Positions 32,500-46,157 of a stretch of DNA of 64,000 nt are shown one piece after another (position 1 is the first letter of the stretch; every line of letters begins with the position of its first letter). Location: assembly GCA_038234975.1 (NCBI GenBank), contig JBBSUK010000003.1, positions 1,678 through 65,677 on the forward strand. The letters run 5' to 3'. The position numbers were made by a program, and so were the translations under genes. This DNA is from Burkholderiales bacterium. GTDB lineage: Bacteria; Pseudomonadota; Gammaproteobacteria; Burkholderiales; Burkholderiaceae_C. The notes below the pieces were generated by a model. It was not told where the DNA came from. It saw nothing but the letters and a program-made list of their open reading frames with translations, and did no database searches.

Positions 32500-33197
32500 G
32501 CGAGCAGGACGCCACCGCCGCCGCCGACATGACCCCCTCGCTCGACGAGTTGTTCGTTCGCAACCGCGCCTGGGCGGCCAAGATCGAGGGCCGATCACCC
32601 GGCTTCTTCACCCGGCTCGACCAGCAGCAGAACCCGAGGTATCTCTGGATCGGCTGCGCCGACAGCCGCGTGCCGGCCAACGAGCTGGTCGACCTGCTGC
32701 CGGGCGAGGTGTTCGTGCACCGCAACGTCTCCAACGTCGTCGCCCATGGCGACCTCAACTGCCTCGCGGTGGTCCAGTTCGCGACCGACGTGCTCAAGGT
32801 GCGGCACATCATGGTCGTCGGGCACTCGCGCTGCGGCGGCGTCACCGCGGCGCTCGAGGGCCGCCGCGTCGGCCTCGCCGACAACTGGCTGCGCTACGTG
32901 CAGGATGTGCGTGACCGCCATGCCGACTGGCTCGACAGCGTCGACCCGGAGGTGCGAGTCGATGCGCTCGGCGAGCTCAACGTCGTCGAGCAGGCGCGCC
33001 ACGTCTGCGAGACGACGGTCGTCACCGATGCCTGGGCGCGCGGCCAGCCGGTCGTCGTCCATGGCTGGTTCTACCGGCTGCACAACGGGCTGCTGAAGGA
33101 CCTGCGCATGACGGTCGATTCGCCGGCGTCGCTCGAGGCGACGTACACGGCGGCCATCGGCGGCATCCGCGGCCGCTACGACGCGGGCACGCGGTGA
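32496..33197 (+). CDS. can: Beta-class carbonic anhydrase
   Basis: [25 protein letters not shown]. Confidence 0.92.
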
Positions 33198-34995
33198 CGC
33201 AGACGCGGCACCCGCCGACCGGCCCCTCCGCCTTCCCGGTCGCGCTGACCGATGCGCGCGCACACGCCATCGCGGTGGCGATGCTCGAGGGGTTCGACCG
33301 TCACTACACGCTCTTTCGCGAGGCGAGCGCCGGCGCCAAGGGTCGCTTCGAGCGAGCCGACTGGGCCGGGCAGCAGCGCGCGCAGGCGCAGCGCATCGCC
33401 TACTACGACCGGCGCGTGGTCGAGGCGACCGAGCGGCTGCAGCGCGAGTTCGGCGCCGGCGAGCTGCCGATGGACGTGTGGCAGCAGGTCAAGCTCCACT
33501 ACATCGGCCTGCTCATCGAGCACCACCAGCCCGAGCTCGCCGAGACCTTCTTCAACTCGGTGACGACGAAGATCCTGCACCACAGCTACTTCCACAACGA
33601 CTTCATCTTCGTCCGTCCCGCGGTCTCCACCGAGTACATCGAGAACGACGCGCCGGCGTCGCTGCCGACCTACCGCGCCTACTACCCGACCCGCGAGACA
33701 CTGCGCCGGACCTGGACGCGCATCGTTTCCAACTTCCAGCTCGAGCGCCCCTTCGAGGAGCTCGACCGCGACATTGCCTCCGTGATGCGCGCCGTCGAGG
33801 CGCATCTCGGCGACGCGCGGCTGCGCGCCAACTTCCAGATCCAGGTGCTCGCGTCGCTCTTCTTCCGCAACAAGGGCGCCTACGTCGTCGGCAAGGTGAT
33901 CAACGGCTTCCACGAGACACCGTTCGCGCTGCCGATCGTGCACGGCGAGAGCGGCGGCCTCACGATCGACACCGCGCTCTTCGGCGAGGACGACCTGCTG
34001 CTCGTCTTCAGCTTCGCGCGGGCCTATTTCATGGTCACGATGGAAGTGCCCTCGGCCTACGTGCAGTTCCTGCACTCGCTGATGCCGAGAAAGCCGCGCT
34101 CGGAGATCTACTCCGCGCTCGGCCTGCAGAAGCAGGGCAAGAACCTCTTCTACCGCGACTTCCTCAACCACATCCGCCACTCGTCGGACCGTTTCCGCAT
34201 CGCGCCCGGGATCAAGGGCATGGTGATGCTGGTGTTCGACCTGCCGAGCTTTCCCTATGTGTTCAAGGTGATCAAGGACGCCTTTCCGGCGCAAAAGGAG
34301 ATCACGCGCGAGCAGGTCATGGGCAAGTACCTGCTCGTCAAGCAGCACGACCGTGTCGGCCGCATGGCCGACACGCTGGAATACAGCAACGTTGCCTTCC
34401 CCGTCGCGCGCTTCGACGACGAGCTGCTGGCCGAGCTGCGCGAGCAGTGCGCGAGCCTGGTCGAGGAGGTGGGCGAGAGCTTCGTCATCCACCATGTCTA
34501 CATCGAGCGGCGCATGGTGCCTCTCAACATCTACCTGCAGGACGCCACGCCGCTGCAGGTCGAGGCCGCCGTGGTCGAGTACGGCAACGCGATCAAGGAC
34601 CTGGTGCGCGCCAACATCTTCCCCGGCGACATGCTGTGGAAGAACTTCGGCGTCACCCGCCACGGCAAGGTCGTGTTCTACGACTACGACGAGATCGAAT
34701 ACCTCACCGATTGCCGCTTTCGCAAGGTTCCGGAGCCGCGCAACGAGGAAGAGGAGATGTCGGCCGAGGTCTGGTACGCGGTCGGCCCGAAGGACGTGTT
34801 TCCCGAGACCTTCGAGCCCTTCCTGCTCGGCAACCCGGCCGTGCGCAAGGTGTTCATGGAGCACCATGCCGACCTGCTCGACGCGGGCTTCTGGCAGGGC
34901 CACCAGGCCCTTATCGCCGCCGGATACGTGCATGATGTGTTCCCTTACGACGGGCAGAAGCGCTTCTCTGCCCAGCCACATCGAGGAGCTTGCCC

Positions 34996-34999
<4 letters not shown>
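33194..34999 (+). CDS. aceK: Isocitrate dehydrogenase kinase/phosphatase
   Basis: [47 protein letters not shown]. Confidence 0.96.
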
Positions 35000-36177
<1,178 letters not shown>

Positions 36178-36185
36178 CGCACGGC

Positions 36186-36653
36186 GTGTCGGCGAGCGTG
36201 CTGCCGGCGCGGCCGGGCGATGTCTTCACCCGCCGCGTGCGGCTGACGGAAGACGAGATCCGTACCTTCGCGCGCTCCGTCGACGACCTCAATCCGCTGC
36301 ACCACGATGCCGACTTCGCGCGCGCGGCCGGTTACCCGGGCCTGATCGCGAGCGGCACGCACGTCGCGTCGATCCTGATGGCGATGACGGCGACGCACTA
36401 TTCGCAGCCCCTCGCCGACGGCACGCCGCGTTCCAGCCTCGGCCTGGGTTTCCATATCTCGTTTCGCGCCGGCGTCGTCGCGGACGAGAACATGGACCTG
36501 CGCTGGACGGTGACCGATGTGACGCGCAAGGACAGCCTGCGCGGCTGGATCACGCGGCTCGACGGCGAGGCGCGGTCGGCGCGCGGGCTGCTGCTGCCGG
36601 CCGAAGGCCAGATCCTGCTGCGGCTCGGCGACGAGATCGTCGCGGAGCGATGA
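36186..36653 (+). CDS. MaoC-family hot-dog dehydratase-like protein
   Basis: FARSVDDLNPLHHDADFA...IASG motif. Start estimated. Confidence 0.8.
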   Translation: MSASVLPARPGDVFTRRVRLTEDEIRTFARSVDDLNPLHHDADFARAAGYPGLIASGTHVASILMAMTATHYSQPLADGTPRSSLGLGFHISFRAGVVADENMDLRWTVTDVTRKDSLRGWITRLDGEARSARGLLLPAEGQILLRLGDEIVAER

Positions 36654-36669
36654 CGAGAGGAGCCGGGAC

Positions 36670-37824
36670 ATGCAACTGAGCGACGACCACCGCGCCGTCC
36701 GCGAGGCCGTTCGCGCTTACGTGCAGGACCACGTTGCGCCGAACGCGGCGGCGTGGAGTCGCGCTGCCGAGTTCCCGCGCGACGCGCTGCGCGGCCTCGC
36801 CGAGCTCGGCTGCTACGGCGTCGCGGTTTCCGCCGAGCTCGGCGGCGCCGGCCTCGACTACCTCGCGCTCGCCGTCCTCCTCGAGGAGATCGCCGCCGGC
36901 GACGGTGCCACCTCGACCATCGTCAGCGTCAACAACTGCCCGGTCTGCTCCATCCTGATGGCGTGGGCGAACGACGCCCAGAAGCAGGCCTGGCTGGTGC
37001 CGCTCGCCAGGGGCGAGATGCTCGGTGCGTTCTGCCTCACCGAGCCGCACGTCGGCTCGGAGGCGAGCGGCCTGCGCACGACGGCGCGGCATGTCCACGA
37101 CGACCAGGGCGACGTCTACGTGATCGACGGCGTCAAGCAGTTCATCACGAGCGGCAAGAACGGCGACGTGGCGATCGTCATGGCCGTGACCGACAAGGCG
37201 GCCGGCAAGCGCGGCATCTCGGCGTTCGTCGTGCCGACGGCGACGCCCGGCTACACCGTCGCGCGGCTGGAGGAGAAGGCCGGGCAGCACGCGAGCGACA
37301 CCGCGCAGATCGTCTTCGAGAACTGCCGCGTCCCGGTCGAAAACCGCCTCGGCGACGAAGGCCAGGGGCTGAAGATCGCGCTGTCGGGCCTCGAAGGCGG
37401 GCGCATCGGCATCGGCGCGCAGGCGATCGGCATGGCACGCGCCGCGTTCGAGGCAGCGCTCGCGTACGCGAAGGAACGGGTGGCTTTCGGCAAGCCGATC
37501 TTCGAGCACCAGGCGGTGCAGTTCCGCCTCGCCGGCATGGCGACGCAGATCGAGGCGGCGCGCCAGCTCGTGCACCACGCCGCCAGCCTGAAGGACGCCG
37601 GCGTGCCGTGCCTGAAGGAAGCGGCGATGGGCAAGCTGTTCGCGAGCGAGATGGCCGAGCGCGTCTGCAGCGAGGCGATCCAGGTGCACGGCGGCTACGG
37701 CTACGTTGCCGACTTTCCGGTCGAGCGCATCTGGCGCGACGTGCGTGTGTGCAGCATCTACGAGGGCACCTCCGACGTGCAGAAGATCCTGATCGCGCGG
37801 GCGCTCGCCAGCAGCGTCGGCTGA
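36670..37824 (+). CDS. Short/branched-chain acyl-CoA dehydrogenase
   Basis: FCLTEPHVGSEA, KQFITSG, LEGGRIGIGAQ, QVHGGYGY, IYEGTSDVQK. Confidence 0.93.
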   Translation: MQLSDDHRAVREAVRAYVQDHVAPNAAAWSRAAEFPRDALRGLAELGCYGVAVSAELGGAGLDYLALAVLLEEIAAGDGATSTIVSVNNCPVCSILMAWANDAQKQAWLVPLARGEMLGAFCLTEPHVGSEASGLRTTARHVHDDQGDVYVIDGVKQFITSGKNGDVAIVMAVTDKAAGKRGISAFVVPTATPGYTVARLEEKAGQHASDTAQIVFENCRVPVENRLGDEGQGLKIALSGLEGGRIGIGAQAIGMARAAFEAALAYAKERVAFGKPIFEHQAVQFRLAGMATQIEAARQLVHHAASLKDAGVPCLKEAAMGKLFASEMAERVCSEAIQVHGGYGYVADFPVERIWRDVRVCSIYEGTSDVQKILIARALASSVG

Positions 37825-37831
37825 CCGCACG

Positions 37832-39319
37832 ATGGACGCACGCCGCGCCCGCGATGTCACGCTGCTCGAAGCGTTCGAGACCGCGACGCCCACGAGCCCG
37901 AGCTGGAGCGCCGACGATCGCGCCTGGGCCGATCGCGTGGCCCGCGAGGCATCGGCCGACGGCGACGATCTCGACGCCTTCGTCTCGAAGCGCGCCGTCC
38001 ACGCGATGCACCGGCTCGGCGAGCGCGAGCCGCAGCTCGTGCGGCTCGCCGCCGAGCCGATGCCGCGCGGCGGCGCGCTCGTGGTGGTGCTTGTCGTCGC
38101 CTTCGCGCTCGGCGTCGCCGCCGACACGATCGGCTCGAACCAGCGCATCAACCTGCTCGCGCCGCCGCTGTGGGGCGTCCTGCTGTGGAACGTGATCGTC
38201 TACCTGCTGCTGCTCGTCACGCCGCTGGTGCGGCTGGCGCGCCGTTCATCGTCCTCGGCGCCGGGCCCGATCCTGCGCTTCGCCCAGGCACTCGCGCAGC
38301 GCGGACTCGGCCCGATCCGGCGCGCCGCCAAGGGCGGTTTCGAAGCGCCGCGCCGCTACGCCTCGCTCTGGCTCGCGCGCAGCCGCGGCCTGGCGATGTT
38401 GCGCGGCGAGACGCTGCTGCACGCTGGCGCCGCGGCGATCGGCCTCGGCTTCATCGCCGGCCTTTACCTGCGCGGCCTCGCGCTCGACTACCGCGTCGTC
38501 TGGGAGAGCACGCTGCTCGACGCGCACGCGGCGCACGCGCTGGTCTCGACGGTGTTCGCTCCGGCTTCTTTGCTGTCGGGCATCTCGCTGCCCGACGAAG
38601 CGGCGTTCGCGGCAATGCGCGTGGCAGCCGGGGCGGGCACGGTCGGCGCGCCGGCGGCGCCCTGGCTGCACCTGATCGCGCTGACGCTGGCGATCGTCGT
38701 CGTGGTGCCGCGCGCCGTGCTCGCGCTCGGATGCGGTGCTGCGGCCGCATGGCGCAGCCGATCGTTCCCGATGCCGTTCGGCGATCCCTACTTCGAGCGA
38801 CTGTCGCGCCTGCGCGGGGGCCGCGACGCGCACGTCGTCGTCGTGCCCTACGCCGCGTCGCCGTCGCCGCAGGGCGCGCTCGGCCTGCGCGCATGGCTCG
38901 CCGAAGCATTCGGCGGCGGTGTCGACCTGCGCCTCGAGTCGATCGTCGCGTTCGGTGAGGAAGACGCGCCGCTGCCGACAGTTGCCGAAGCGACGACCCA
39001 TGCGATCGTGCTGTTCGACCTGAGCGCCACGCCCGAGGACGAGCACCACGGCCGGTTCGTGTCGGCGCTGGCCGCCGCACTGCCGGCAGGCGCGGTGATC
39101 GCCGTGGCCGTCGACGCGGGCGCCTTCGCCCGCCGCTTCGCTGGCCTCGACGAGCGGGTCGCACAGCGTCGCGAGGCGTGGCGGCGGTGGGGCGAGGGCA
39201 TGGGCATCGTTCCGATCGTCGTCGACCTCGAGCACGAAACGGCGGCGGTCGATGCGCTCGAGGCGGTGTTCGTTTCGCCGCGTGCCCTGACACCGTCCAC
39301 CGGCAGGCGCGACCCATGA
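37832..39319 (+). CDS. DUF2868-like multi-pass membrane protein
   Basis: Several TM segments and a YRVVWESTLL motif I associate with DUF2868. Coupled (ATGA overlap) to the downstream GTPase. Confidence 0.7.
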   Translation: MDARRARDVTLLEAFETATPTSPSWSADDRAWADRVAREASADGDDLDAFVSKRAVHAMHRLGEREPQLVRLAAEPMPRGGALVVVLVVAFALGVAADTIGSNQRINLLAPPLWGVLLWNVIVYLLLLVTPLVRLARRSSSSAPGPILRFAQALAQRGLGPIRRAAKGGFEAPRRYASLWLARSRGLAMLRGETLLHAGAAAIGLGFIAGLYLRGLALDYRVVWESTLLDAHAAHALVSTVFAPASLLSGISLPDEAAFAAMRVAAGAGTVGAPAAPWLHLIALTLAIVVVVPRAVLALGCGAAAAWRSRSFPMPFGDPYFERLSRLRGGRDAHVVVVPYAASPSPQGALGLRAWLAEAFGGGVDLRLESIVAFGEEDAPLPTVAEATTHAIVLFDLSATPEDEHHGRFVSALAAALPAGAVIAVAVDAGAFARRFAGLDERVAQRREAWRRWGEGMGIVPIVVDLEHETAAVDALEAVFVSPRALTPSTGRRDP

Positions 39320-40905
39320 CGAACGCACCGGTCGGCGACGACGCTCCTGGGGCCGGCCTCGACCGCGACGCGCGCGGCCGCTCGATCTCGCTCGCCCTGG
39401 TCTCGCACACCAACGCCGGCAAGACGACACTCGCGCGCACCTTGCTGGGCCGCGACGTCGGCGAGGTGCGCGACGCCCCGCATGTCACCGAGTTCTCCGA
39501 CGCGCACACGCTGGTCGAGGCCGAAGGCGGCGAGCGCCTCGTCCTCTGGGACACACCGGGCTTCGGCGACAGCGTGCGCCTCGCGAAGCGCCTGCGGCTG
39601 CATGCGAATCCGATCGGCCGCTTCCTCGGCGAGCTGTGGGACCGCTGGCTCGACCGGCCGATGTGGTCGGCGCAGCAGGCACTGCGAACGGTGCGCGACG
39701 ATGCCGACGCACTGCTCTACCTCGTCAACGCCTCGGAGTCGATCGAGTCGGCGGGCTACGTGAAGCCGGAGATGGAGATCCTGGCCTGGGTCGGCAAGCC
39801 GGTCGTCGTGCTGCTCAACCAGCTCGGCGCACCGCGCGAGCGCAGCGTCGAGTCGGCCGAGGTCGAACGCTGGCGGCAGGCGCTGGCCGCGAGCCCGGTG
39901 GTTCGCGCCGTGCTCCCGCTCGACGCCTTTGCGCGCTGCTGGGTGCAAGAACTGACGCTGCTCGCGTCGATCGAGGCGGCGTTGCCCGACGAGAAGCGCG
40001 CGACGATGCAGCGTCTGCGCGCAGCCTGGCGGGCGACCCGCCTGGCGACGTTCGATCGTGCGATGGCGGTGCTCGCCGAGGGGCTTGCGAAGGTCGCCGC
40101 GCAGAGCGAGACCTTGCCGCAGCACGAGAGCTTCGGCGCGCGGCTGCGCAGTGCCGGCGCGGTGCTCGGGCGCACCTTCTCGGGTGCGAAGCGACGTGAC
40201 GAGGGCACGCCGGCCGACATCGACCCGCAAGGCCCGACTGCGCAGGCGCGACGGGCGCTCGTCGACCGCCTCGACACGGAGGTCCGCTCGGGGACCCACG
40301 CGCTGATCGCCATGCACGGCCTCGGCGGCCGCGCCGAGCGCGAGATCCTCGACCGGCTCGCCTCGGGCGTCGACGTGCGCATCAAGGTCGACGAGAAGCA
40401 GGCGGCGGCGTGGGGCGGTGCGGTCACCGGCGCGATCGCCGGGCTGAAGGCCGACATCCTGAGCGGCGGGCTCACCCTCGGCGGCGGCATGCTTGCCGGC
40501 GGCCTCATCGGCGCGCTGGGAGGTGCGGGCGTGGCCCGCGCTGCCAACCTCGTTCGCGGCACCGACCGGTCGACCGTCGCCTGGAACACCGAAGCGCTCG
40601 ACGCGATGGTCGAGGCCGCCGTGCTGCGCTACCTCGCCGTCGCCCACTTCGGGCGCGGCCGGGGCGAGTGGAAGCAGGGCGAGTTCGCGCCGCACTGGAA
40701 GCTGCTCGTGTCACAGGCGATCGTGGGCCGGCACGACGCGCTTGCCGGGGTCTGGGAGCTTCGTGGCCCGGCTGGCGCCGCCGAGGCCGACGCCGCCGCC
40801 GCGATCGCCCGGGCCGTCGAGCCGATCCTGCGCGACGCCACCCTGCGCGTGCTCGGCGAGCTCTACCCCGACGCGCCGCTCGACGGCGCTCAGCCGCCCG
40901 CGTAG
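39316..40905 (+). CDS. TRAFAC GTPase with a DUF3482-like C-terminal domain
   Basis: G1 SHTNAGKTT, G3 DTPGFGD, G4-like LLNQ, Gly-rich hydrophobic hairpin GGAVTGAIAG...GGLTLGGGMLAGGLIG. Confidence 0.8.
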   Translation: MTNAPVGDDAPGAGLDRDARGRSISLALVSHTNAGKTTLARTLLGRDVGEVRDAPHVTEFSDAHTLVEAEGGERLVLWDTPGFGDSVRLAKRLRLHANPIGRFLGELWDRWLDRPMWSAQQALRTVRDDADALLYLVNASESIESAGYVKPEMEILAWVGKPVVVLLNQLGAPRERSVESAEVERWRQALAASPVVRAVLPLDAFARCWVQELTLLASIEAALPDEKRATMQRLRAAWRATRLATFDRAMAVLAEGLAKVAAQSETLPQHESFGARLRSAGAVLGRTFSGAKRRDEGTPADIDPQGPTAQARRALVDRLDTEVRSGTHALIAMHGLGGRAEREILDRLASGVDVRIKVDEKQAAAWGGAVTGAIAGLKADILSGGLTLGGGMLAGGLIGALGGAGVARAANLVRGTDRSTVAWNTEALDAMVEAAVLRYLAVAHFGRGRGEWKQGEFAPHWKLLVSQAIVGRHDALAGVWELRGPAGAAEADAAAAIARAVEPILRDATLRVLGELYPDAPLDGAQPPA

Positions 40906-42260
40906 AACTTGTGCGGAAGCCAGAGCACGATCTGCGGGAAGACCACGCACAGCGCCACGCCGATCGCCTGCAGGCCGATGAACGGAAGGGCCGATCGGAA
41001 GATCGTCGCCATGCTGATCTCGGGCGGGGCCACGCTCTTCAGGTAGAAGAGTGAATAGCCGAAAGGCGGACTGAGGAAGGCCATCTGCATGTTGACCATG
41101 AAGATCACGCCGTACCACAGCGAGATGTCCTTCGGGCTCAGGCCCTCGAAGCCGAACAGGCCGGCGAACTCGACCGACTGCAGGATGGGCACGAAGATGG
41201 GCACCGTCAGCAGCAGGATGCCGACCCAGTCGAGGAACATGCCGAGCACGAACAGCACGACCATCATCAGCAGCAGGATCCCGTAGGGCCCGAGGCCGGT
41301 GCCGATGATCGACTCGGCCACGAACGTCTGACCGCCCTTGATGATGAAGAAGCCGACGAACATCGTCGCGCCGAAGAAGATCCACATCACCATCGCCGTC
41401 GCCTTCAGCGTCGAGATGCCGGCGTCCTGCACGTTGACCCAGTTCAGCCGCCCGTGCAGGGCGCACACGAACAGCGCCCCGAACGTGCCGATCCCGGCCG
41501 CCTCGACCGGCGTGGCGATGCCGACGAAGATGACGCCGAGCACGAGCGTGATGAGCAGGATCGGCGCGATCGTCTTGCGCAGCAGGCGCAGCTTCTCCGG
41601 GAAGTCGACCCGCTCCTCGACCGGCAGCGCCGGCCCGAGCTTCGGGTCGATCGTGCAGCGAACGGTGATGTAGGCGACGTACATCCCGGCCAGCAGCAGC
41701 CCCGGGAAGACCGAGCCGATCAGCAGCTCGCCGAGCGACTGCTGCGCCACCACCGCGTAGACGATGGCCATCACCGAGGGCGGGATGAGGATGCCGAGCG
41801 TGCCGCCGGCGAGCAGCGATCCGCAGGCGATCTTCTGGTCGTAGCCGCGCTTGAGCATCGCCGGCAGCGCGATCATGCCCATCGTGATCTCGGTCGCGCC
41901 GACGACGCCGACCATCGCCGCCAGCGCCGTGCAGGCGATGACGGTGGCCGACGCAAGGCCGCCCTTGAGCGAGCCGAGCCACTTGTAGATGACGTCGAAC
42001 AGCTCCTCGATGATCCCCGCCTTCTCGAGCATCGCCGCCATGAAGATGAACAGCGGCACGGCCGACAGCTGGTAGTCGGTCATGAACGGGAAGATGCGCG
42101 ACGGCATCATGTTCAGCACCGCAGGCGTGCCGAACACGAACAGGAAGATCACGGCCAGGCTGCCGGTGCAGAACGCCATCGGCAGCCCGAGCATCAGCAG
42201 CACGCCGAGCGAGCCGAACAGGAGCAGCGACAGCCAGGCGATCGGGATCTCGAGGCCCAT
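40890..42260 (-). CDS. dctM: TRAP transporter large permease
   Basis: LSAVPLFIFM, GGTLGILIPPS, PVEAAGIG, FLSPPFG. Confidence 0.93.
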   Translation of the reverse strand: MGLEIPIAWLSLLLFGSLGVLLMLGLPMAFCTGSLAVIFLFVFGTPAVLNMMPSRIFPFMTDYQLSAVPLFIFMAAMLEKAGIIEELFDVIYKWLGSLKGGLASATVIACTALAAMVGVVGATEITMGMIALPAMLKRGYDQKIACGSLLAGGTLGILIPPSVMAIVYAVVAQQSLGELLIGSVFPGLLLAGMYVAYITVRCTIDPKLGPALPVEERVDFPEKLRLLRKTIAPILLITLVLGVIFVGIATPVEAAGIGTFGALFVCALHGRLNWVNVQDAGISTLKATAMVMWIFFGATMFVGFFIIKGGQTFVAESIIGTGLGPYGILLLMMVVLFVLGMFLDWVGILLLTVPIFVPILQSVEFAGLFGFEGLSPKDISLWYGVIFMVNMQMAFLSPPFGYSLFYLKSVAPPEISMATIFRSALPFIGLQAIGVALCVVFPQIVLWLPHKFYAGG

Positions 42261-42262
42261 GC

Positions 42263-43393
42263 TCAGGCTTTCCCGTGGCGGGTGACGATGACGATGTCCT
42301 TGACGAGCTTCGACAGGCCCTGCAGCACGATGAGCGCGCCGCCGATCGGGATCGCGAGCTTCACGGGCCAGTACTGGATCCCCCACTCGGTGAACGACGA
42401 CTCGTGGTTGGCGATGGCGTCGCCGGCGAAGCGCCAGCCGGTCCAGAACAGCGTGAGGGTGAAGATGAAGAAGAAGACCGACGTGACAATGTCGGCGATG
42501 GCCTTGCCGCGCGGCGAGAAGCGGGTGTAGAGCACGTCGACCCGCACGTGCTGGTCCTCTCGGTAGGCGTAGGCGCCGCACAGCATGTACTGCATGCCGA
42601 ACATCAGGAACATGCTCTCGTGGACCCAGTTGGTCGGCGAGTTGAAGACGTAGCGCGCGATCACCTCGTAGTAGTAGACGAAGACCGCGATCACGGCCCA
42701 ATAGGCGACGTACTCGCCGACGCGCGTGTTGACGGTGTCGATCCAGTCGGTGAAGCGGGTGCGAACGACCAGCCCGGGATCTTCGGCGGTGCCCTGCGGC
42801 GCGACGTGCGGTTCGTGCGCGACCGGGTCGTCGGCGTAGCCAGCGCCGGCCCAAAGCGCGCGGCGCCGCTTCACCATCGACGGGATCAGCAACGCGTCTG
42901 CCACCAACAGCACGGCGATCACGATGACGAGGATGCGCGCGTAGTCCTTCCAGCGATCCTGCGCGGCGTGCGCCGCGACGGACTCCTTCTCGAGGCCGCG
43001 TGCCTCTTCCTGCGCCGCGGCGAGCGTGCGCGCTTCATCGGTGGTCGGTGCGGCGGCGTCGAGCGGCGCCGCGCGCCGGACCGTGATGTCGGCCCGCTCG
43101 CTGGCGGCGGTCGTTCGAGACACGTCGTCGCGGAGCTCGCGCACCTGCGAGTTGCAGTAGAGAACGGCCAGGAACAGCGGTACGTACAGGAACCCCCACC
43201 CGCTCTTCAGGTACAGCCGGTGCAGGCCCATGAAGCCGCCGAACAGCCAGAACAGGTAGGCGTTGAACATCAGCGGCGCGCGCGGCGCGCCCAGGCGCTT
43301 CTGTCGTGCCACGAAGAACATGGCGACGAACGGAAAGACGACGAGCACGCCCCAGTACAGCCAGTGCGGAAGGACGAACGTGAGCGAGGGCAT
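42263..43393 (-). CDS. TRAP small permease (DctQ) with an N-terminal TM2-like domain
   Basis: N-terminal AYLFWLFGGFMGLHRLYL and C-terminal YEVIARYVFNSPTNW...HVRVDVLY. Confidence 0.85.
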   Translation of the reverse strand: MPSLTFVLPHWLYWGVLVVFPFVAMFFVARQKRLGAPRAPLMFNAYLFWLFGGFMGLHRLYLKSGWGFLYVPLFLAVLYCNSQVRELRDDVSRTTAASERADITVRRAAPLDAAAPTTDEARTLAAAQEEARGLEKESVAAHAAQDRWKDYARILVIVIAVLLVADALLIPSMVKRRRALWAGAGYADDPVAHEPHVAPQGTAEDPGLVVRTRFTDWIDTVNTRVGEYVAYWAVIAVFVYYYEVIARYVFNSPTNWVHESMFLMFGMQYMLCGAYAYREDQHVRVDVLYTRFSPRGKAIADIVTSVFFFIFTLTLFWTGWRFAGDAIANHESSFTEWGIQYWPVKLAIPIGGALIVLQGLSKLVKDIVIVTRHGKA

Positions 43394-43465
43394 CGGTGGG
43401 GGAGTGCAGTTCCGACAGCGTCACGCCGCCCGAAGGCGGCGTGACGGGGCAACAGCGCGCGACGG

Positions 43466-44581
43466 TCAGGCCTTGACCGACAGACCCTTGTACATGTCGG
43501 GGGTGACGTAGCCGACCGTGGGAGACTCCATGACCGCAAGCTGCATCTTGAAGATCTTCGCCGCGTCGGCGTCCTTGTTGGCCCATTTGAACCAGATCGG
43601 CACCGCGACCTTCTGGAACTGCGGCAGGTCCTCGGCCGGCAGCCGGTTGATGGTGACGCCGGCCTTCTCGAACTTGCCCCAGGCTTCCATGTCGGCCTTC
43701 TGGATCGCGCCGAAGTGGATGTTCGAGTAGACCTGGATCTCGTCGTCGAGCCAGACCTTCATCTTCGGCGAGAGCTTGTTCCAGACGTCCATCCTGACGA
43801 CGAAGTCCATCAGGTCGACCGGCTGGTAGATCGACTCGAGCCCCGGGGGCCCGGTCCAGATGTACTTGGTGACCTGCTGGAAGCCGAGGTCCCAGTTGAC
43901 GGCCGGGCCGGTGTAGTCGGCGGCGTCGACGGTGCCCTTCTCCAGGGCCGAGAACACCTCGCTGCCGGGCAGCAGCGTCGTCTTCGCGCCGATCGCCGCA
44001 AAGCCTTCGGCGATCATGCCACCGGGTACGCGCAGCTTGAGGTCCTTGAAGTCGGCGATGCCGCGGATCGGCTTCTTCGAGTGGATGATGTTCGGGCCGT
44101 GGTGGATCCGGTTGACGTAGTAGAGGCCCTGCTTGGCGAACAGGTCGCGCGCTGCCTGCAGGCCGCCCTGGCTGTAGAAGAAGATGTCCCACTCGTGCGG
44201 GTAGCGCAGGCCCATGAGGTAGGAACTGAGGAACGCCGTGGCGGGCATCTTGCCGGCCCAGTAGAGCGTGAACGAGTTCATCGCCTCGAGCACGCCGTTC
44301 TTCACGCCGTCCAGGAGCTCGAAGTCGCCGACGACTTCCTTGGCCGCGAACGGCTTGATCTCGAGCTCGCCGCCGGTCTTCTCCTTCACCGTCGCGGCCC
44401 AGGCCTTGAACGTCGCCAGGCCGATGCCGGCGGGCCATGACGTCTGCACCTTCCAGGTCGTCGTCGTCGCGGCGCGGGCGTTGCCGATGAAAGGCGCGCC
44501 GAGCAGGGCCGTCGCGCCCACGCTGGCGGCCTTGACGAAGCCGCGGCGTTGCGCCAAGGGGGTTTCGGAATCGTTGCGCAT
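43466..44581 (-). CDS. dctP: TRAP substrate-binding protein with a Tat signal
   Basis: QRRGFVK twin-Arg signal, LKLRVPGG, FSALEKGTVDAAD. Confidence 0.92.
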   Translation of the reverse strand: MRNDSETPLAQRRGFVKAASVGATALLGAPFIGNARAATTTTWKVQTSWPAGIGLATFKAWAATVKEKTGGELEIKPFAAKEVVGDFELLDGVKNGVLEAMNSFTLYWAGKMPATAFLSSYLMGLRYPHEWDIFFYSQGGLQAARDLFAKQGLYYVNRIHHGPNIIHSKKPIRGIADFKDLKLRVPGGMIAEGFAAIGAKTTLLPGSEVFSALEKGTVDAADYTGPAVNWDLGFQQVTKYIWTGPPGLESIYQPVDLMDFVVRMDVWNKLSPKMKVWLDDEIQVYSNIHFGAIQKADMEAWGKFEKAGVTINRLPAEDLPQFQKVAVPIWFKWANKDADAAKIFKMQLAVMESPTVGYVTPDMYKGLSVKA

Positions 44582-44600
44582 CGAATCTCCTGGGGGGTGT

Positions 44601-44618
44601 GTTACGGGGCACGGTAAC
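44601..44618. promoter_or_regulatory. Possible operator GTTAC-N8-GTAAC
   Basis: Inverted repeat in the divergent dctP/HAD intergenic gap. Confidence 0.3.
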
Positions 44619-44673
44619 GTCGTCTGGTCGACGGCAACACCGCGTTTACCCGGCGCCACGCTACGCTACACCG

Positions 44674-45408
44674 ATGCCTGCCACTTCCGCTCCGTTCGAA
44701 CCGGCGACCGTCCGCGCGCTCGCGTTCGACGTCTTCGGCACCGTCGTCGACTGGCGCTCGTCGATCATCCGCGACGGCGAGGCGCTGTCGGCTGCCAAAG
44801 GGATCAGGGTCGACTGGGCCGCGTTCGCCGACGCCTGGCGGGCCGGCTACCAGCCGGCGATGCAGCGGGCGCGCAGCGGTGAGATCGCCTGGGCCAACAT
44901 CGACGGCCTGCACCGTTCGATCCTCGACACGTTGCTGCCGCGCTTCGGCCTGCAGGCGCTCTCGGCGGCGGAGTTCGAACACCTGAATTTCGTCTGGCAT
45001 CGGCTCGACCCGTGGCCCGACGCTGTCGCCGGCCTCAAGCGGCTGAAGTCGCGGTTCGTGATCTCGACGCTGTCCAACGGCAACGTCTCGCTCCTCGTGG
45101 ACCTGGCCAGGCATGGTGCGCTGCCATGGGACTGCGTACTCTCTGCCGAGCTGTTTCGCCACTACAAGCCCGATCCCGAGGTCTACCTCGGCGCGGCGCA
45201 GCTGCTCGGCGTAAAGGCCGGGGAGGTGCTCATGGTGGCAGCGCATCCGGGCGATCTCGAGGCGGCGCAGCGGGCGGGCCTCAGGACGGCGTACGTGCCG
45301 AGACCGCTCGAGCACGGGCTGCATCACGCTGCGGAACCGATCGGCGCGCGCACGTTCGACATCACGGCGGAAGACTTCAATGCGCTGGCCAGACAACTCG
45401 GCGTCTGA
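44674..45408 (+). CDS. Haloacid dehalogenase type II-like HAD hydrolase
   Basis: FDVFGTVVDW, TLSNG, YKPDPEVY, VAAHPGDL. Confidence 0.88.
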   Translation: MPATSAPFEPATVRALAFDVFGTVVDWRSSIIRDGEALSAAKGIRVDWAAFADAWRAGYQPAMQRARSGEIAWANIDGLHRSILDTLLPRFGLQALSAAEFEHLNFVWHRLDPWPDAVAGLKRLKSRFVISTLSNGNVSLLVDLARHGALPWDCVLSAELFRHYKPDPEVYLGAAQLLGVKAGEVLMVAAHPGDLEAAQRAGLRTAYVPRPLEHGLHHAAEPIGARTFDITAEDFNALARQLGV

Positions 45409-45463: not shown

Positions 45464-45769
45464 GTGCGCACCAACATCGACATCGACGACCACGTGCTCG
45501 AACAGGCGATGCGGGCCGGGCCGTACAAGACGAAGAAGGACGCGGTCGAGGCCGGCTTGAAGTTGCTCGCGCGCCAGGCCGCGTATCGCGAGCTCCTCAA
45601 GTGGGAAGGCAAGCTCGAGTGGGACGGCGAGCCGTGGAGCGCGCACGACAAGCGCATCGCGCGGGCGGGGCAGTCCGTTCGTCCTGCCGTGGCCACGGGC
45701 GAATCTTCGTACCGACCGCCGCTGGCGCAGGAGCCCGGTTCAGGCAAGCGCAGCCATGGTCGTCGTTGA
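45464..45769 (+). CDS. vapB: VapB-type antitoxin
   Basis: RTNIDIDD.VL..AM...KTKKDAVE.GL ribbon-helix-helix pattern. Overlaps the PIN gene by 14 nt. Confidence 0.85.
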   Translation: MRTNIDIDDHVLEQAMRAGPYKTKKDAVEAGLKLLARQAAYRELLKWEGKLEWDGEPWSAHDKRIARAGQSVRPAVATGESSYRPPLAQEPGSGKRSHGRR

Positions 45770-46157
45770 CTCGAGTGTCTGGATCGACTTCTTCAACGGC
45801 GCACGCAACCCCGCGCACACCGCCCTGCGCCGCTTGCTCGACGACGGCGACGTCCGCCTGGTCGTTCCCGATCTGGTGCTCTTCGAGGTCTTGCGCGGCT
45901 TTCGCCACGAGCGCGATCTGCGCCAGGCCCGCACGCTGATGGAAAGCCTCGACGTCGAAGACAGCGGCGGCGCCGCGGCGGCGTTCGCGGCGGCGCAGCA
46001 TTACCGCAGCCTGCGCGCAGGCGGCACCACCGTGCGCAGCGCCCTCGACGTGTTGCTCGCGAGCTTCTGCATCGAGCACGACTACGCCTTGCTGCCCAGC
46101 GACCGCGACTTCGACTCCTTCGAGTTGCAGCGCGGCCTGCGCGTCTGGCGGCACTGA
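45756..46157 (+). CDS. vapC: PIN-domain toxin
   Basis: VVDSSVWIDFF, LFEVLRG, LDVLLA, SDRDF (acidic tetrad retained). Confidence 0.9.
   Translation: MVVVDSSVWIDFFNGARNPAHTALRRLLDDGDVRLVVPDLVLFEVLRGFRHERDLRQARTLMESLDVEDSGGAAAAFAAAQHYRSLRAGGTTVRSALDVLLASFCIEHDYALLPSDRDFDSFELQRGLRVWRH

Follow-up and report, generated by a model that had tools for sequence, protein, structure and literature searches.

A coupled DUF2868 and GTPase-DUF3482 gene pair from a Burkholderiales bacterium, proposed to encode two subunits of an inner-membrane NTPase complex

In FeoB the membrane domain is regulated by a helical domain and by a K+-activated G domain of the Era class at the N-terminus. In atlastin and Sey1p one chain, cytoplasmic except for its two-helix membrane hairpin, runs from a G domain through a helical bundle and this hairpin to a C-terminal tail; these eukaryotic proteins have a large GBP-type G domain and form homotypic dimers. 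In the bacterial LeoBC system the G domain is split over adjacent genes, with the P-loop and switch 1 in one and switch 2 in the other (PMC4159319). The P-loop Asn is the K+ ligand of the MnmE-type nucleoside triphosphatases (NTPases), and dynamins have Ser at that position (PMC6310460). A gene pair encoding a DUF2868 protein and a GTPase-DUF3482 protein appears among the hypothetical proteins of P. aeruginosa (PMC12864544). Here we describe such a pair, located on the + strand of a 64,000-nucleotide stretch (the window, to which all coordinates refer unless a locus is named) of contig JBBSUK010000003.1 from a Burkholderiales bacterium. It is proposed that the two genes encode two subunits (A from gene 1, B from gene 2) of one inner-membrane NTPase complex, with a nucleotide switch on a six-helix core; we regard this proposal as evenly poised.

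Gene 1 (37832..39319, + strand) encodes a 495-aa membrane protein matching PF11067 (DUF2868; 50.1 bits against a gathering cut-off of 26.8, E 3.7e-13). Gene 2 (39316..40905, + strand) encodes a 529-aa protein matching PF01926 (MMR_HSR1; 39.6 bits, gathering cut-off 21.9) and PF11981 (DUF3482; 47.9 bits, gathering cut-off 29.2), the two Pfam domains being matched together by 35/35 aligned gene 2 homologues; its match to the Pfam Septin family fell under the curated cut-off. The ATG of gene 2 lies over the TGA of gene 1 in an ATGA overlap (39316..39319), indicative of translational coupling. A scan of species genomes for the GTPase gene gave 80 loci. Wherever the upstream DNA sufficed, a DUF2868 gene lies 5' of the GTPase gene and in the same orientation, essentially always as its direct neighbour; the one exception is L009, where no gene 1 tblastn match was found at E <= 1e-5 despite ~3.5 kb of upstream DNA. 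The 4-nt overlap (ATGA or GTGA) is kept in 53 of the 67 loci in which it could be analysed. In adjacency, order and overlap the window's pair is like the DUF2868 and GTPase/DUF3482 pairs of Proteobacteria at these 80 related loci and nothing structural sets it apart; it is an ordinary member of both families. In four cases unrelated genes stand between homologues of genes 1 and 2, both of which are intact: an AbiD gene in each of two Lautropia loci, L066 (4739-5860; PADLOC AbiD, E 2.7e-64) and L072, a cupin gene in L036, and in L003 three genes, encoding a PLD-like enzyme, a quinone oxidoreductase and a TetR regulator. The number of homologues (gene 2 has more than 6,500 in a protein collection clustered at 90% identity, and 1,389 matching clusters at 50% identity), their adjacency and the kept overlap put the pairing far beyond chance, and the two genes are very probably obligate partners forming one unit. 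A preliminary description of this DNA had called them a coupled two-gene unit without an assigned function; the unit is confirmed by the overlap and by the upstream DUF2868 gene of relatives, and no function is assigned to DUF2868 or DUF3482 in the literature searched.

The two products also occur as single chains, many of which were found by a homology search with the 1002-aa fused open reading frame (ORF) of L044 and by a representative search. In the full fusion, type (a) (L044, 1002 aa; P0241; P0286), DUF2868, a linker and GTPase-DUF3482 follow in that order. Type (b), of ~830 aa (P0244, P0246, P0248, P0249 and L020), comprises the DUF2868 N-domain, four transmembrane (TM) helices and a 'PYF' helix, but lacks the C-terminal alpha/beta domain of DUF2868; the live G domain comes immediately after the 'PYF' helix and stands exactly in the place of the missing domain. 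No separate DUF2868 gene was found in the L020 genome. Fusions fall at no fewer than five separate places on the tree of the GTPase part, which indicates that gene fusion was repeated and independent, and repeated fusion is a classical sign of two products working in one complex. The A-linker-B order of the fusions fits the C-in topology of the gene 1 product (see below) and a cytoplasmic G domain.

In type (c) (P0254, P0258, P0323, P0352 and P0401), chains of type (b) have had their P-loop and G3 destroyed. These chains bear on an invariant loop in the C-terminal domain of B, which reads HFGRGRG in the window (40645-40665). Among 98 aligned family members, 93 with an intact P-loop and G3 and five P-loop-dead, the loop (H[F/Y/H]GRG[R/K/Q]G) is kept in 92/93 of the intact members and degraded in all five dead chains (HYGRGPA, HGLAAE, HAGHMKE, QTGRPQN and HFVRGEN), each of which retains the G..D..GG..G pattern of the membrane hairpin of B; the dead forms represent only ~3 lineages, and the count of five overstates their independence. 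The co-loss of the GRGxG loop and the P-loop points to an action of this loop in the nucleotide cycle, perhaps as an arginine finger or by sensing the nucleotide state. The retention of the membrane core in the dead forms argues that the core is still under selection after the NTPase has been lost. P0258 aligns with gene 1 residues 1-327 and gene 2 residues 56-444, and keeps the N-domain and TM part of gene 1 with the motifs QRVNLLAP, WESTF and PR. It occupies the AceK-thiolase-acyl-CoA dehydrogenase synteny that also holds the window's pair, which indicates a positional replacement of a live pair and no extra copy.

The surroundings of fused P-loop-dead forms were seen in two cases. In one (L084/L085, 5001-7142), a 713-aa chain stands in this AceK-thiolase-acyl-CoA dehydrogenase synteny and is directly followed by the TrkA and TrkH potassium-uptake genes. 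The other (L083, 6001-8388) sits on a mobile island that also carries an integrase, transposases and ParB; next to it, a 688-aa AAA_5 protein gives a match to the PADLOC candidate PDC-M26A (E 1.5e-18).

The pair is also found in another phylum. Six Agromyces species (Actinomycetota; L031, L037, L060, L070, L073 and L074, on contigs of 22 kb to 865 kb) carry it whole, and the 4-nt overlap is preserved in the five of these loci that were scored (L060 was not scorable). In a maximum-likelihood tree of the GTPase, which otherwise largely follows taxonomy, they form one clade nested in betaproteobacterial Rhodocyclaceae and Casimicrobiaceae sequences (support 100/95). The pair thus looks to have moved as a unit across phyla into Agromyces, a monoderm. 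That it is kept in bacteria without an outer membrane argues for work on or in the cytoplasmic membrane, with no diderm-specific partner required. The pair of L073 has 72-74% GC and its adjoining flank 58-62% GC. Elsewhere the distribution is patchy and accessory: the window's own genome has a single copy, 14 control genomes have none, and strong matches occur in ~22-23 of 201 sampled genomes of the order (about 11%), in nine families. A class-wide genome sample gave only weak partial matches outside the order, the alignment profile being too narrow to gauge distribution at that depth.

Protein B was modelled with AlphaFold2 (AF2) from 35 sequences (predicted local distance difference test, pLDDT, 75.6; predicted template modelling score, pTM, 0.77), and its conservation was scored over 27 representatives sharing <=50% identity. 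The model, the alignment and fold matches delimit a G domain of ~200 aa (aa 23-222; 39382..39981). Its G1 is SHTNAGKT (aa 30-37; 39403-39426), conserved as H31-T32-N33-x-G35-K36-T37 with N33 present in 27/27 representatives. G2 (HVT) has an invariant or nearly invariant Thr58. G3 is DTPGF (39550-39564; DTPG, aa 79-82), in which D79-x-P81-G82 is conserved and F83 follows in 24 of the 27; the model shows an insert of three helices after it (aa 86-129), which contains a WDR motif. G4 is NQLG (aa 168-171; 39817-39828), with N168 invariant and then Q169 in 23/27, and a G5-like LDAFxRCW (39919-39942) conserves D203-A-F and E212. The G domain is followed by a poorly conserved helical region (aa 225-351; 39988..40368) with helices at 225-262 (38 residues), 273-288, 307-333 and 339-351, conservation being poor throughout aa 213-365. 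Next comes a Gly-zipper hairpin (aa 362-413, 360-413 in the model; 40399..40554; 29% Gly, pLDDT 39-50), in which G376, D380, G384-G385, G391 and G395 are near-invariant. The chain closes with a four-helix C-terminal domain (aa 425-516; 40588..40863) and a terminal LYP; here the loop residues H444-x-G446-R447-G448-x-G450 and, at the C-terminus, P518 are conserved. G1, G3, G4, the long helices and the Gly-rich hairpin had all been recognised in the preliminary description.

The G domain of B is closest to the cation-dependent TRAFAC GTPases of the Era/MnmE/EngA(Der)/EngB/FeoB class. A Foldseek search of the PDB placed Era at the top (E 1.2e-5), then RbgA/YphC, EngB and MnmE, all aligned over the G domain only. 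The NCBIfam models for Era, Der, HflX and EngB matched residues ~20-90 below threshold, and none gave an equivalog-level match (Era, for example, scored 25.2 against a cut-off of 237). A profile of gene 2 against PDB sequences retrieved only weak P-loop stretches of Der, Era, GIMAP7 and septin. B shares with the class its best fold and profile matches, the P-loop Asn at the K+-ligand position, Thr58 of G2 and the hydrophobic Phe83 after DxxG, by which we take it to be a 'hydrophobic-substituted' GTPase with no catalytic Gln. It differs in that the first P-loop Gly is Ser, G4 is NQxG without Asp instead of NKxD, and a 45-residue helical insert follows switch II; it also has a stalk, a Gly-zipper hairpin, the GRGxG loop and a dedicated membrane partner. 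These comparisons suggest that gene 2 encodes an Era/MnmE-class G domain that falls in no named family of the class. As a separate observation, aa 26-219 (39391-39972) gave a single PHROGs match, to phrog_8900, a 466-position profile without an assigned function (E 5.7e-11), indicating that related G domains are encoded by phages or prophages.

Protein A, modelled from 67 sequences (pLDDT 90.4, pTM 0.83), begins with a helical domain (aa 1-75; 37832..38056; helices 3-17, 27-40, 47-65 and 67-74) in which W25, D29-R30, W32, R35, R54 and H57 are conserved. The model and the invariant residues then place TM1 (aa 79-99) and TM2 (aa 111-136, containing W119 and N120), with the short loop QRINLLAPP (aa 104-112) between them, at 38066..38239, and TM3 (aa 185-217), a loop of aa 218-274 (DYRxxWESTxL, PD) and TM4 (aa 275-310) at 38384..38761. 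These four hydrophobic helices bear out an earlier reading of A as a multi-pass membrane protein, and P293-R294 is invariant inside the hydrophobic stretch of TM4. Loop 137-192 contains 12 K/R against 1 D/E and loop 217-276 contains 2 K/R against 5 D/E, which by the positive-inside rule indicates an N-in, C-in topology. On that topology the N-terminal domain is cytoplasmic, and the most conserved loops of A (QRINLLAPP, DYRxxWESTxL, PD and AAPW) face outward.

A short helix PYFERL connects TM4 to a C-terminal cytoplasmic alpha/beta domain (aa 330-482, 333-481 in the model; 38819..39277), whose AF2 secondary structure runs beta1-alpha1-beta2-beta3-alpha2-beta4-alpha3-beta5-alpha4. This is the Ras order minus one beta-alpha unit, unlike the strict beta-alpha alternation of flavodoxin. 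The domain has no Walker A; a Pro-rich loop PYAASPSPQ occupies the P-loop position and an invariant T400-P401-E402 follows beta3 at the DxxG position, so that the domain appears to be nucleotide-dead. The invariant residues R442, R446 and W450 line up as a stripe along a single helix. The four best Foldseek matches of A are GPCR-flavodoxin fusion constructs, which combine a TM bundle with an alpha/beta domain, and ~45 of the top 50 are the small GTPases Rab, Sec4 and RhoA, over ~175 aligned columns; a profile of gene 1 against PDB sequences found no match even at E 10. The fold order, the list of matches, the replacement of this domain by a live G domain in the fusions and the decay seen in type (c) give moderate support to its being a dead G domain. 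The earlier suggestion that it is 'degenerate GTPase-like' is thus moderately upheld by the Ras-like order and the Rab-type matches, whereas profile comparison with gene 2 and the presence of flavodoxins among the matches speak on the other side, as discussed below.

On this basis the following mechanism is proposed. With its K+-type P-loop Asn, and with Phe in place of the catalytic Gln, the Era/MnmE-class G domain of B would be switched on by a cation together with contacts to a partner or within a dimer. A would dock B at the membrane, with the hairpin of B packed on the four-helix base of A; Arg294 of A and Asp380 of B are a candidate contact pair between hairpin and TM4. The dead G-like domain of A would hold the live G domain of B, and nucleotide binding and hydrolysis may involve the GRGxG loop of B. 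The nucleotide cycle would then toggle the cytoplasmic assembly, and the variable helical stalk of B would relay this to the six-helix membrane core, whose conserved outward-facing loops mark it as the probable working part. What the analysis shows is the coupling of the genes, their conservation and fusions, the motifs, and the predicted folds and topology; from these we infer the physical complex of A and B, the pairing of G and pseudo-G domains, the K+ dependence, the role of GRGxG and the output. For this output, regulated gating or membrane-integrity work is tentatively ranked, on thin evidence, slightly above dynamin-type fission or fusion, because the natural P-loop-dead chains keep the membrane core, unlike what a motor would be expected to do.

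Several results weigh against this proposal. The guanine-specifying Asp of G4 is absent in every member (0/93 of the intact members have Asp at the fourth position), and the nucleotide may therefore not be GTP. The hairpin of B is only marginally hydrophobic (Kyte-Doolittle maximum 1.45 over a 19-residue window) and has low pLDDT, and it may be a peripheral wedge instead of a transmembrane hairpin. The Rab-type matches of A are weak (E 0.008-0.04, TM-scores of 0.4-0.5, mostly about 0.45), with a few flavodoxins matching too, and profile-profile comparison of genes 1 and 2 (hhalign) found no similarity (probability 0.3), so sequence cannot establish that the C-terminal domain of A and the G domain are paralogues. 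The P-loop-dead forms, coming from ~3 lineages only, may be decaying genes. Finally, gene context across the 80 loci offers no clue to the output of the complex: there is no conserved third gene, no other neighbour family occurs in more than 12/80 loci, and the recurrent neighbours (acyl-CoA dehydrogenase, HAD hydrolase, DsbA-like protein and carboxyltransferase) recur in related lineages only.

Of the alternative explanations, the one that survives best is a FeoB-like arrangement, in which a gated channel or transporter would be built from the six helices (4 + 2), perhaps assembled into oligomers by the Gly zipper, with the Era-class G domain as its cytoplasmic gate and regulator. FeoB has a G domain of the same K+-type Era/MnmE/FeoB class, and such a function would be suited by the strong conservation of the outward-facing loops of A and of several polar or charged residues within or beside the membrane helices (N120, Y124, H197, Y212, R214 and R294 of A; D380 of B). 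A membrane core that outlives its NTPase fits a regulator that can be lost or locked, and the dead fused P0258 adjoins TrkA-TrkH, although this is a single case. However, neither protein matches a transporter family in Pfam or NCBIfam, and no FeoB_N, FeoB_C or gate-motif permease domain was found in either with these models. FeoB combines a polytopic permease and its gate motifs in a single chain, whereas the window's pair has only six helices per heterodimer, distributed 4 + 2 over two chains, one pair of them being the poorly hydrophobic, low-confidence hairpin, and carries an extra dead G-like domain. The pair also has no conserved substrate-related neighbour. Overall we consider the FeoB-like explanation unlikely.

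A true bacterial dynamin-like system, with B as a dynamin-like protein (DLP), A as a degenerate DLP partner and GTP-driven fission, fusion or repair, was what the preliminary description had suggested; it is not borne out and we consider it very unlikely. The resemblance lies in the order of parts in B, namely G domain, helices, Gly-rich membrane hairpin and helices, a helix order that would fit a neck and trunk bundle with helices on both sides of a paddle, and in a stalk region of low conservation, a trait also of DLPs. Pairing of DLP genes is frequent (PMC6104087), and the bacterial DLPs and mitofusins (BDLP1, IniA, LeoA/LeoBC, DynA, Cj-DLP1/2 and Fzo1/MFN) are like the window's pair in linear layout and in their paired genes. 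Foldseek aligned B over its full length with M. smegmatis IniA in the PDB (~600 columns, E 5.6e-5) and with giant-virus dynamin-family GTPases among viral models (E 1e-4), and PADLOC gave a weak LeoA/LeoBC match. These full-length matches are weak, however, with TM-scores of 0.21 for IniA (root-mean-square deviation 30 A) and 0.22-0.26 for the viral proteins, and the PADLOC matches are limited to residues 22-84 of gene 2, the P-loop region. Dynamin_N (PF00350) scored 13.5 bits against a cut-off of 27 and matched 0/35 homologues at E <= 0.01. The G domain, at ~200 aa, is shorter than that of dynamins (about 300) and closest to Era, EngB and MnmE; it has Asn instead of the dynamin Ser in the P-loop (PMC6310460) and NQLG instead of (N/T)KxD at G4, without the Asp. 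It is also unsplit, unlike that of LeoBC: gene 2 has G1 to G5 and gene 1 none. A is no DLP, and where DLP pairs have a second DLP the window's pair has a four-TM protein with a dead G-like domain. A mechanochemical motor is difficult to reconcile with the persistence of GTPase-dead single chains whose membrane core is intact. The pair thus resembles dynamins and mitofusins in layout only. The same applies to the order of parts that B shares with atlastin and Sey1p, to which no sequence or fold match of the pair was found.

An anti-phage or abortive-infection module, in which the GTPase would sense infection and the hairpin and membrane partner would permeabilise the membrane, is highly improbable. 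It would accommodate the AbiD gene between the pair genes in Lautropia, the dead fused form in a mobile island beside PDC-M26A, the G-domain match to a phage family (phrog_8900), and a patchy distribution with cross-phylum transfer. PADLOC has no model for the full proteins, however, and the window's neighbours are metabolic (aceK, thiolase, MaoC, acyl-CoA dehydrogenase, TRAP transporter and HAD). The acyl-CoA gene synteny is stable over related genera, unlike typical defence islands, the GTPase tree mostly tracks taxonomy, and the window's own genome has a single copy. Most improbable of all is a membrane-tethered, Era-like ribosome- or translation-associated GTPase, acting for example in membrane-protein biogenesis with A as its anchor: the ribosome-assembly GTPases Era, Der/EngA, EngB and RbgA/YphC are the closest sequence and fold relatives of B and its Pfam domain is named '50S ribosome-binding GTPase', but B has no KH or other RNA-binding domain, its NCBIfam scores are far under equivalog cut-offs, the pair is accessory and patchy where ribosome-assembly GTPases are near-universal, and conservation outside the G domain falls on membrane elements.

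With regard to the surroundings of the pair, a + strand block at 33194-37824 contains ORFs labelled aceK, thiolase, MaoC-like and acyl-CoA dehydrogenase, and its last stop codon lies 7 nt before the start of gene 1. The AceK, thiolase and acyl-CoA dehydrogenase families are confirmed by annotated loci of relatives, and the block from aceK to acyl-CoA dehydrogenase is syntenic with the pair in related Sphaerotilaceae, the family to which the source organism, a Caldimonas-like bacterium, belongs. Co-transcription of this metabolic block with the pair is possible from the arrangement of the genes; a scan of 32500-41500 for promoter and terminator signals found nothing above shuffled sequences. 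A link of the pair to beta-oxidation genes, which adjoin it in the window, L082 and L084, was considered and then attributed to lineage synteny, these genomes having many such genes. Downstream, three ORFs on the - strand (40890-44659) resemble a TRAP-transporter operon, the 3' end of its convergent last gene overlapping the last 16 nt of gene 2. They separate the GTPase gene from a HAD hydrolase gene (44599-45408) that in relatives' genomes lies immediately beside the pair, and they therefore look like an insertion in this lineage. Two small overlapping + strand ORFs at 45464-46157 resemble a VapB/VapC-type toxin-antitoxin pair, the second starting MVVVDSSVWIDFFNG, typical of a PIN-domain VapC.

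The pair is widespread, and a published listing of it includes P. aeruginosa. New here are its transfer as a unit into Agromyces, the fusions that swap the dead G-like domain for the live G domain, and the P-loop-dead fused forms that lack the GRGxG loop yet keep the membrane core. Residues of interest are N33, K36, T58, R447/R449 and D380 in gene 2 and R294, T400-E402 and R442/R446/W450 in gene 1. A broader model, which we hold to be doubtful, is that the DUF2868/DUF3482 proteins represent an unrecognised class of bacterial membrane G-protein machine, derived from an Era-type GTPase and with an origin separate from that of the dynamins. A live G domain and its dead, membrane-tethered paralogue would clamp a six-helix core, the arginine loop GRGxG would complete the active site, and the family would repeatedly cycle between two-gene, fused and G-dead states, the dead domain of A being a fossil of such decay. 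The output would be a nucleotide-controlled reshaping or gating of the cytoplasmic membrane in diderm and monoderm bacteria. If the two-subunit mechanism proposed above is right, the family would offer a natural series of live, fused and dead G domains in which the origin of pseudo-GTPases could be studied, and would represent a second, independently evolved way of coupling a GTPase to membrane work.

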